Part shown: one piece after another, positions 6,878-8,468 of the stretch | Layout: the number at the start of each line of letters is the position of its first letter | How positions within the stretch are numbered: the stretch's first letter is position 1 | Virus record (IMG/VR): IMGVR_UViG_2734482594_000016 | DNA: 15,003 nt | From: a virus | Lineage: Duplodnaviria > Heunggongvirae > Uroviricota > Caudoviricetes | Direction: 5' to 3' (one strand) | Made by a program: the position numbers and the translations under genes | Notes under the pieces: model-generated | Databases searched by the model: none | The model's input: only the letters and a program-made list of their open reading frames with translations | Told to the model about the DNA's origin: nothing

Positions 6878-6904
6878 GGCGTCAGAAATGACGCCTTTTT
6901 TATT
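6878..6904 (+). terminator. Rho-independent terminator after J
   Basis: GGCGTCA-GAAA-TGACGCC hairpin (6878-6895) followed by TTTTTTATT. Confidence 0.65.
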
Positions 6905-6925
6905 GCAGAAAAGCGAGAGGTAATT

Positions 6926-7407
6926 ATGCGTAAACTTTATGCCGCCATTTTGTCCGCAGCCATTTGTCTGGCCGTATCCGGTGCGCCTGCATGGGCGTCT
7001 GAACATCAGTCCACGCTGAGCGCGGGGTATCTTCATGCCCGGACGAACGTTCCCGGCAGTGATGATCTGAACGGGATTAACGTGAAATACCGTTATGAGT
7101 TTACGGACACACTGGGGATGGTGACGTCGTTCAGCTATGCAGGAGACAAGAATCGCCAGCTGACCCATTACAGCGATACCCGCTGGCATGAAGATTCCGT
7201 GCGTAACCGCTGGTTCAGCGTGATGGCGGGGCCGTCTGTACGCGTGAATGAATGGTTCAGCGCGTATGCGATGGCGGGTGTGGCTTACAGCCGTGTGTCG
7301 ACTTTCTCCGGGGATTATCTCCGCGTAACTGACAACAAGGGGAAAACGCACGATGTGCTGACCGGAAGTGATGACGGTCGCCACAGCAACACGTCTCTGG
7401 CGTGGGG
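6926..7407 (+). CDS. lom: Lom-like outer membrane protein (Ail/Lom family), copy 1, N-terminal 160 aa; 3' end in gap
   Basis: ATG at 6926 with GAGG 6 nt upstream; signal-peptide-like start [24 protein letters not shown], then a beta-barrel-like sequence. The track ORF 6926..7819 is a chimera across the N run into the J variant-2 tail. Confidence 0.8.
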
Positions 7408-7595
7408 NNNNNNNNNNNNNNNNNNNNNNNNNNNNNNNNNNNNNNNNNNNNNNNNNNNNNNNNNNNNNNNNNNNNNNNNNNNNNNNNNNNNNNNNNNNNN
7501 NNNNNNNNNNNNNNNNNNNNNNNNNNNNNNNNNNNNNNNNNNNNNNNNNNNNNNNNNNNNNNNNNNNNNNNNNNNNNNNNNNNNNNNNNNNNNNN
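7408..7595. other. Run of 188 N
   Basis: Directly visible. Confidence 1.
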
Positions 7596-7819
7596 GTTAT
7601 GGTTTTGAAGTTCGCAAAAACGGCGTATTAATCGCATCCAGAGAAACTAAAGGTGCCATTCCCGGTAGTTACAGTGCAGTTATTGATATGCCTAGTGGTG
7701 GTGGTAGCGTCACTCTGGAGTTTAAGATTTTCCAGAAAGGCAATCAGGGGGCAGGCAATATCACCGACTGTACGGTGATTGTGACCAAAAAAGCGGCTTC
7801 CGGCATCAGTATTCGTTGA
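7596..7819 (+). CDS. J: Last ~74 codons of J (variant 2), 5' end in gap
   Basis: Encodes [73 protein letters not shown] then TGA at 7817-7819; identical to the C-terminus of the inverted fragment at 88-311. Confidence 0.8.
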
Positions 7820-7841
7820 AATATTTATAACCCCAATAAAT

Positions 7842-7868
7842 GGCGTCAGGAATGACGCCTTTTTTATT
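7842..7868 (+). terminator. Rho-independent terminator after the J variant-2 3' end
   Basis: GGCGTCA-GGAA-TGACGCC hairpin followed by a T-run (7860-7865). Confidence 0.65.
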
Positions 7869-7889
7869 GCAGAAAAGCGAGAGGTAATT

Positions 7890-8468
7890 ATGCGTAAAGT
7901 TTGTGCAGCCATTTTGTCCGCAGCCATTTGCCTGGCCGTATCCGGTGCGCCTGCATGGGCGTCTGAACATCAGTCCACGCTGAGCGCGGGGTATCTTCAT
8001 GCCCGGACCAACGTTCCCGGCAGTGATGATCTGAACGGGATTAACGTGAAATACCGTTATGAGTTTACGGATACGCTGGGGCTGGTGACGTCATTCAGCT
8101 ATGCAGGAGACAAGAATCGCCAGCTGACCCGTTACAGCGATACCCGCTGGCATGAAGATTCCGTTCGTAACCGCTGGTTCAGCGTAATGGCGGGGCCGTC
8201 TGTGCGCGTGAATGAATGGTTCAGCGCGTATGCGATGGCGGGTGTGGCTTACAGCCGTGTGTCGACTTTCTCCGGGGATTATCTCCGCGTAACTGACAAC
8301 AAGGGGAAAACGCACGACGTGCTGACCGGAAGTGATGACGGTCGCCACAGCAACACGTCTCTGGCGTGGGGAGCTGGCGTGCAGTTTAACCCGACCGAAT
8401 CCGTGGCCATTGATATTGCACAGTGTTATGACAGCCCGCCGGTTCAGGCGGGCTTTTTTGTGGGGTGA
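7890..8468 (+). CDS. lom: Lom-like outer membrane protein, copy 2 (192 aa), with a divergent and probably truncated C-terminus
   Basis: Almost identical to copy 1 through ...HSNTSLAW, then continues [17 protein letters not shown] and ends [15 protein letters not shown] without the aromatic C-terminal residue usual for beta-barrel proteins. The last codons run through a terminator-like hairpin. Confidence 0.7.
8433..8460 (+). terminator. Terminator-like hairpin lying inside the 3' end of lom copy 2
   Basis: AGCCCGCC-GGTTCA-GGCGGGCT followed by TTTTTT, 6-35 bp before the lom stop and just upstream of the stf start. Confidence 0.5.

Follow-up and report, generated by a model that had tools for sequence, protein, structure and literature searches.

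The window analyzed here is the whole of CXAI01000103.1, a whole-genome shotgun draft scaffold of 15,003 nucleotides (nt) from assembly GCA_001249355.1. A unit made up of a terminator and a lom gene appears in it twice in tandem, at 6878–7407 and 7842–8371, each copy lying behind a different 3′ end of the phage tail gene J (variants 1 and 2). We conclude, with a probability of about 0.9, that this tandem pair is a scaffolding artifact and not a gene duplication. Three runs of N (283, 259, and 188 nt) split the scaffold into four contigs, A to D, which are laid out as follows.

1–1929, minus strand: contig A, with 1842 nt of the 3′ part of J variant 2 (88–1929), and the terminator and first 17 nt of lom (1–87)
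1930–2212: scaffold gap between contigs A and B, N run of 283 nt
2213–4300, plus strand: contig B, with the 3′ part of the tail assembly gene I, followed by the first 1586 nt of J (start at 2715)
4301–4559: scaffold gap between contigs B and C, N run of 259 nt
4560–7407, plus strand: contig C, with J variant 1 (4560–6859; J nucleotide 1100 through the stop), the terminator, and lom copy 1
7408–7595: scaffold gap between contigs C and D, and hence between the two lom copies, N run of 188 nt
7596–15003: contig D, starting with the last 224 nt of J variant 2 (7596–7819, plus strand; Pfam Ig_GpJ_C)
8465–15003: remainder of contig D, with stf, tfa, sopB, sopA (Pfam), and the approach to a predicted hairpin telomere

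Contig overlaps and reconstruction of two J genes

The first 311 nt of contig A (1–311) are identical (100%), as the reverse complement, to positions 7596–7906 of contig D. It follows that the J body on the inverted contig A ends in the 224-nt J tail that precedes lom copy 2. Likewise, the end of contig B (3814–4300) and the start of contig C (4560–5046) are the same segment of J, at 96% identity over 487 nt. Contigs B and C are thus not consecutive parts of one gene, and J as drawn contains these 487 nt twice, along with a gap of 259 nt, a length not divisible by three.

Two complete J genes can be rebuilt from the pieces. Contig B (2715–3813) joined to contig C (4560–6859) gives an open J of 3399 nt, exactly as long as the J genes of NZ_CP010160 and NZ_CP145143. 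Contig B (2715–4300) joined across 70 nt to the reverse complement of contig A (1929–88) gives an in-frame J of 3498 nt, which is the length of J in the phage-plasmid CP088810.1. Pfam profiles place Ig_J, Ig_J_second, Phage_Tail_Tip, and Ig_GpJ_C on contig A and FNIII-A_GpJ and Phage-tail_3 on contig B. Contig C also has Pfam J domains, and aligns end to end with the J–lom region of the E. coli H1 chromosome at 97.9% identity. The domains FNIII-A_GpJ, Phage-tail_3, Ig_J, Ig_J_second, Phage_Tail_Tip, and Ig_GpJ_C follow one another in the expected order over contigs B and C, and equally over contig B and the reverse complement of A.

The second of these arrangements occurs in complete sequences. 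In CP088810.1 (positions are those of locus L001, CP088810.1 48855–72345), contig B maps to 4225–6312, the reverse complement of A to 6383–8311, and contig D from 8001 onward, all collinear and with a 70-nt gap between the first two. When a stitched query of 3042 nt, consisting of the end of B, the reverse complement of A, and D, was mapped on 5,426 complete E. coli genomes, 3,286 of them had at least 80% of it in one place, and among the top matches listed it occupied one place spanning 3111–3112 nt, equal to the query plus the 69–70 missing nt. The sequence flanking the two units does not fit a tandem duplication at one locus, as a better alternative placement of the pieces exists, and no sequence joins the two lom copies, there being only 188 N between contigs C and D. 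A preliminary description of this DNA had ranked a real tandem duplication as the less likely option. That ranking holds, with the copies on separate contigs and the alternative placements rebuilding complete J genes.

The repeated terminator–lom unit

Each unit consists of a J stop codon followed by a hairpin with a T run and then by a gene of the Ail/Lom family. The components of the two units are as follows.

6877–6896, plus strand: predicted terminator of copy 1, GGGCGTCA-GAAA-TGACGCCT, 8 pairs, tail TTTTTA, −14.6 kcal/mol (consensus scan and folding)
6926–7407, plus strand: lom copy 1, first 482 nt (160 codons) only, the gene being cut by the contig end
7842–7859, plus strand: predicted terminator of copy 2, GGCGTCA-GGAA-TGACGCC, 7 pairs, tail TTTTTT, −12.6 kcal/mol (consensus scan and folding)
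7890–8468, plus strand: lom copy 2, 192 codons

Between 6878–7407 and 7842–8371 there are 15 substitutions in 530 nt and no insertions or deletions (97.2% identity). The two stretches had been called near-identical with a few substitutions, and the count agrees; the four differences named at that time (loop GAAA versus GGAA, MRKLYA versus MRKVCA, GMV versus GLV, and LTHY versus LTRY) are correct as well. So is the placement of the copies, the first following the J variant 1 stop (6859) and being cut at 7407 by the run of 188 N, and the second following the J variant 2 stop (7819) and leading into stf at 8465. A repeat search paired 6869–7168 with 7833–8132 at 95% identity, and blastn extended the match to 6821–7407 and 7781–8371 at 94.1%. 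This likeness is far beyond chance.

Both predicted hairpins look like rho-independent terminators, with a GC-rich stem, a T run directly 3′ of it, and a position downstream of a stop codon. Membership of both proteins in the Ail/Lom family (Pfam PF06316, Ail_Lom) is borne out by profile matches covering positions 1–160 of 199 for the 160-amino acid copy 1 (E=5.8e-95) and 1–178 of 199 for the 192-amino acid copy 2 (E=2.9e-107). The two Lom copies differ at four of their 160 common residues (L4V, Y5C, M65L, and H81R), and 10 of the 14 coding differences between the genes are synonymous. They are two diverged alleles under selection, and reflect neither sequencing noise nor a recent duplication.

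Neither copy encodes a complete barrel with its last strand and C-terminal aromatic residue. Copy 1 stops at the contig end (7407), and copy 2 lacks 83 nt of its 3′ end, as compared with four references. The missing 83 nt, with the break at 8419/8420, take in the final strand of the barrel along with its stop codon and extend into the spacer; the reading frame of copy 2 runs through a terminator hairpin and stops beside the start of stf. No clear microhomology was seen at the break, and an exact-protein look-up found the 192-amino acid protein in the CXAI01000103.1 record only. The loss may be a private deletion or an error of gap closure or assembly.

Copy number in complete genomes and phages

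The terminator–lom unit was found at 177 places in the 175 phage records that carry it. The linear phage-plasmid NZ_CP145143.1 has one unit. The E. coli H10 chromosome has three, more than 230 kb apart, and the nearest genome compared (G001) also has three, more than 800 kb apart. CP088810.1 has two, solely as mirror images 14 kb apart. No second unit close to a first was found in the complete records examined. In these sequence records, a single terminator–lom unit per element is the rule. Complete E. coli genomes have a median of 2–3 J–lom places, and up to 16, so that two alleles in one isolate are the expected situation.

The 81-kb record CP088810.1, deposited as circular, has a head-to-head mirror arrangement, J-lom-stf-tfa-sopB-sopA followed by sopA-sopB-tfa-stf-lom-J, with its center near position 15555 of L001. 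It is evidently a dimer record produced by assembly through the hairpin of a linear plasmid of ~40 kb.

Origin of the contigs

Downstream of lom copy 2, contig D carries the following genes.

8465–11869, plus strand: stf
11869–12444, plus strand: tfa
12477–13442, minus strand: sopB (Pfam SopB_HTH)
13442–14608, minus strand: sopA (Pfam ParA/AAA_31)

A match to the Rfam family IS009 (RF02111), at full model length and with a score of 199 bits, lies within the 3′ part of tfa (12212–12410, plus strand).

Contig D is 98.6–99.8% identical to the phage-plasmids CP088810.1 and NZ_CP145143.1. The portion from 11869 to 15003 is 99.8% identical to NZ_CP145143.1 (pCAVP367-48), a linear record of 47.6 kb that encodes a protelomerase. 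The end of the window maps 12 nt from the end of this linear record and ~63 nt from the mirror center of CP088810.1, and the right end of the scaffold (14609–15003) is thus predicted to be where an N15-like linear plasmid ends in its hairpin telomere. As expected of an N15-like element, the partition genes sopA and sopB lie beside tail fiber genes at this end. Since contig D has the order stf-tfa-sopB-sopA and ends near the end of pCAVP367-48, one source of the scaffold is an N15-like telomere phage-plasmid. The preliminary description had proposed two source prophages collapsed into one path. The presence of two elements is upheld by the contig bubble and the rebuilt J genes, but one of the two sources is this linear phage-plasmid and not an integrated prophage.

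The affinities of the remaining pieces are mixed. In contig C, the tail of J variant 1 together with lom copy 1 (6360–7407) is 100% identical to pCAVP367-48, and 4560–5160 is nearly identical to both phage-plasmids. The central block of contig A is plasmid-like. Lom copy 2 and its J tail are 99.6–99.7% identical to chromosomal prophages, and the start of contig D (7596–9147) has three mismatches to a chromosomal prophage of E. coli H10, while positions 9800–15003 have two mismatches to the phage-plasmid CP088810.1. The affinity of contig D switches at ~9430–9780, within the repetitive, Ala/Ser-rich shaft of stf, and this switch is either a natural recombination point or the seam of a chimeric contig. 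An exact-protein look-up found the 1134-amino acid Stf in the CXAI01000103.1 record only.

Both J types occur on plasmids as well as on chromosomes, plasmid examples being NZ_CP145143.1 for variant 1 and CP088810.1 and CP117614.1 for variant 2, and comparison alone therefore cannot assign the lom alleles to replicons. Judged by sequence similarity, it seems about equally likely that contig C is the plasmid arm and contig D is chimeric, or that contig B, the reverse complement of A, and contig D form the plasmid as a natural mosaic. The assignment of alleles to replicons leaves the verdict on the tandem pair untouched. The nearest virus record (G002) was considered for phasing the alleles and was set aside, its J C-terminus being different. 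We also considered whether the start of contig C marks a K′/′J deletion junction like that in H10, which lies 7 nt away (4560 in the window, 6903 in locus L014). Among the 5,426 genomes this junction is unique to H10, and the closeness of the left end of contig C to it is probably a coincidence.

Scaffolding model and alternative explanations

The following course of events would account for the deposited scaffold. The isolate, E. coli by similarity, would hold at least two lambda-like elements whose J–lom–stf regions share 94–97% identity in some stretches and have diverged at the receptor-binding end of J. Short-read assembly would break at the shared stretches and leave four contigs forming a bubble. 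The stem of the bubble would be contig B (I and the 5′ part of J), one arm would be contig C (J variant 1 and lom allele 1), the other arm the reverse complement of contig A (J variant 2 and the start of lom), and the exit contig D (tail of J variant 2, lom allele 2, stf, tfa, sopB, sopA, and the telomere). A scaffolder that linearized this bubble into the order A (inverted), B, C, and D would put arm C before D and so bring the two lom alleles to within ~1 kb of each other. On each real element, a single J stop would then be followed by a single rho-independent terminator and a single lom. False joins by greedy scaffolders and gap fillers are documented (PMC5320598), and short-read assembly is known to be limited by homologous lambdoid prophages, whose long shared stretches are not bridged by short reads (PMC10925052). 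The lom copies differ by 2.8%, mostly at synonymous positions, and match different complete records, which we count in favor of a two-element origin. The contig structure, the perfect 311-nt overlap, the two J genes that can be rebuilt, and the single-copy order in complete genomes are observed directly; the behavior of the assembler, and the location of the alleles on different replicons or loci of the isolate, are what these observations would imply.

Several points weigh against the artifact. That molecules with both copies are absent is something we infer and did not observe. The gap sizes are positive (188–283 N) and fit no assembler model that could be reconstructed, and contig A lies beside the wrong end of contig B, which no specific assembler model explains. 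The ends of contig C are nearly identical to phage-plasmids and positions 7596–9147 of contig D to a chromosomal prophage, so that contig D would have to be either chimeric or a natural mosaic. The exact-match runs at the contig ends (53, 8, 2, and 164 nt) were also compared with a single assembler k-mer size, and fit none.

A real rearrangement could in principle have produced the same order, if recombination between two lambdoid elements had left a lom gene, a 224-nt 3′ fragment of J, and a second lom in tandem. The deposited order does show the tandem with positive gap estimates, lambdoid tail regions are highly mosaic and recombinogenic, and contig D switches from chromosomal-prophage to phage-plasmid affinity within stf. 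However, this explanation also calls for a partial J lying inverted upstream of gene I and for a duplication inside J, with the first lom either truncated or complete. It requires at least three independent odd junctions, all of them inside N runs, and the J so drawn would be nonfunctional. The 311-nt overlap is 100% identical, as would come from reuse of the same reads, and both alternative paths rebuild perfect J genes. Only two extra places occurred across the 175 phage records, and a neighboring second copy was missing from the complete records examined. We therefore regard a real rearrangement as extremely unlikely. We hold just as little expectation that the true structure is a recombinant of a phage-plasmid and a chromosomal lambdoid prophage having two J ends, each with its own terminator–lom, one in tandem and one inverted. 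If it were, the two receptor-binding ends of J would be kept as a store of host-range cassettes. In a milder version, contig D by itself might be a natural recombinant, in which the J tail, lom, and 5′ half of stf come from a chromosomal prophage and the 3′ half of stf, tfa, and sopBA from a phage-plasmid. Such a contig, if real, would directly attest that integrated and plasmid prophages had swapped modules within one cell.

The two alleles might instead come from a mixed template, with two strains, contaminating DNA, or two variants of a multicopy phage-plasmid in one culture having been merged by the assembler. Both J types are found on N15-like phage-plasmids in public records, and both arms of the bubble are partly plasmid-like, as such a mixture would have it. 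But with a median of 2–3 J–lom loci per genome and as many as 16, two alleles in one clean genome are the default, and the window shows no trace of contamination. A mixed template is accordingly improbable in our estimation, and a scaffolding artifact that combines two elements of one isolate is the explanation we favor.

Comparison with known systems

Each unit, taken alone, is the well-known lambda-type J–terminator–lom junction. Phage lambda has the same order, namely the J stop, a hairpin and T-run terminator, lom with its own ribosome-binding site, stf, and tfa, and the lambda-type unit occurs at 85–98% identity in the 175 phage records, including phage 434, mEp460, and Stx-converting phages. 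Taken singly, the units of the window differ in nothing from that of lambda; the apparent second copy comes from the scaffold alone, and lom copy 2 is 83 nt short at its 3′ end relative to all the relatives examined.

The right part of the window resembles N15-like telomere phage-plasmids of Escherichia. As in pCAVP367-48 (NZ_CP145143.1) and pB16EC0268-3 (CP088810.1), stf-tfa leads to sopB-sopA, encoded on the opposite strand, after which the plasmid ends. The window differs from these in spanning only the portion from the tail tip to the telomere end, and in that a chromosomal prophage, rather than NZ_CP145143.1 or CP088810.1, is the closer match to its J, lom, and 5′ stf portion. Several related phage-plasmids have a macro-domain gene between stf and tfa (as in NZ_CP145143.1; L013 43567–44469), but this gene is absent from the window (11867–11869) and from CP088810.1.

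The scaffold as a whole resembles what short-read E. coli assemblies make of paralogous prophage regions when these are collapsed or mis-scaffolded. As in such cases, contig breaks lie inside shared phage genes, the flanks at the N runs are redundant and slightly different, one contig is inverted and misplaced, and a perfect overlap is left unmerged.

Implications

The open reading frames that cross N runs (88..2328, 2715..4592, and 6926..7819) are not genes, and it would be wrong to list CXAI01000103.1 as a phage that has two lom genes or a duplicated J. Tallies of copy number, host range, or virulence factors drawn from such draft scaffolds would over-count lom and misdescribe J. The value of the finding is mainly cautionary. 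Its only biology, mildly useful, is the co-occurrence of a phage-plasmid and a lambdoid element: besides an N15-like linear phage-plasmid, the isolate harbors one or more further lambdoid elements with the same tail-tip module, a situation that is common in E. coli.
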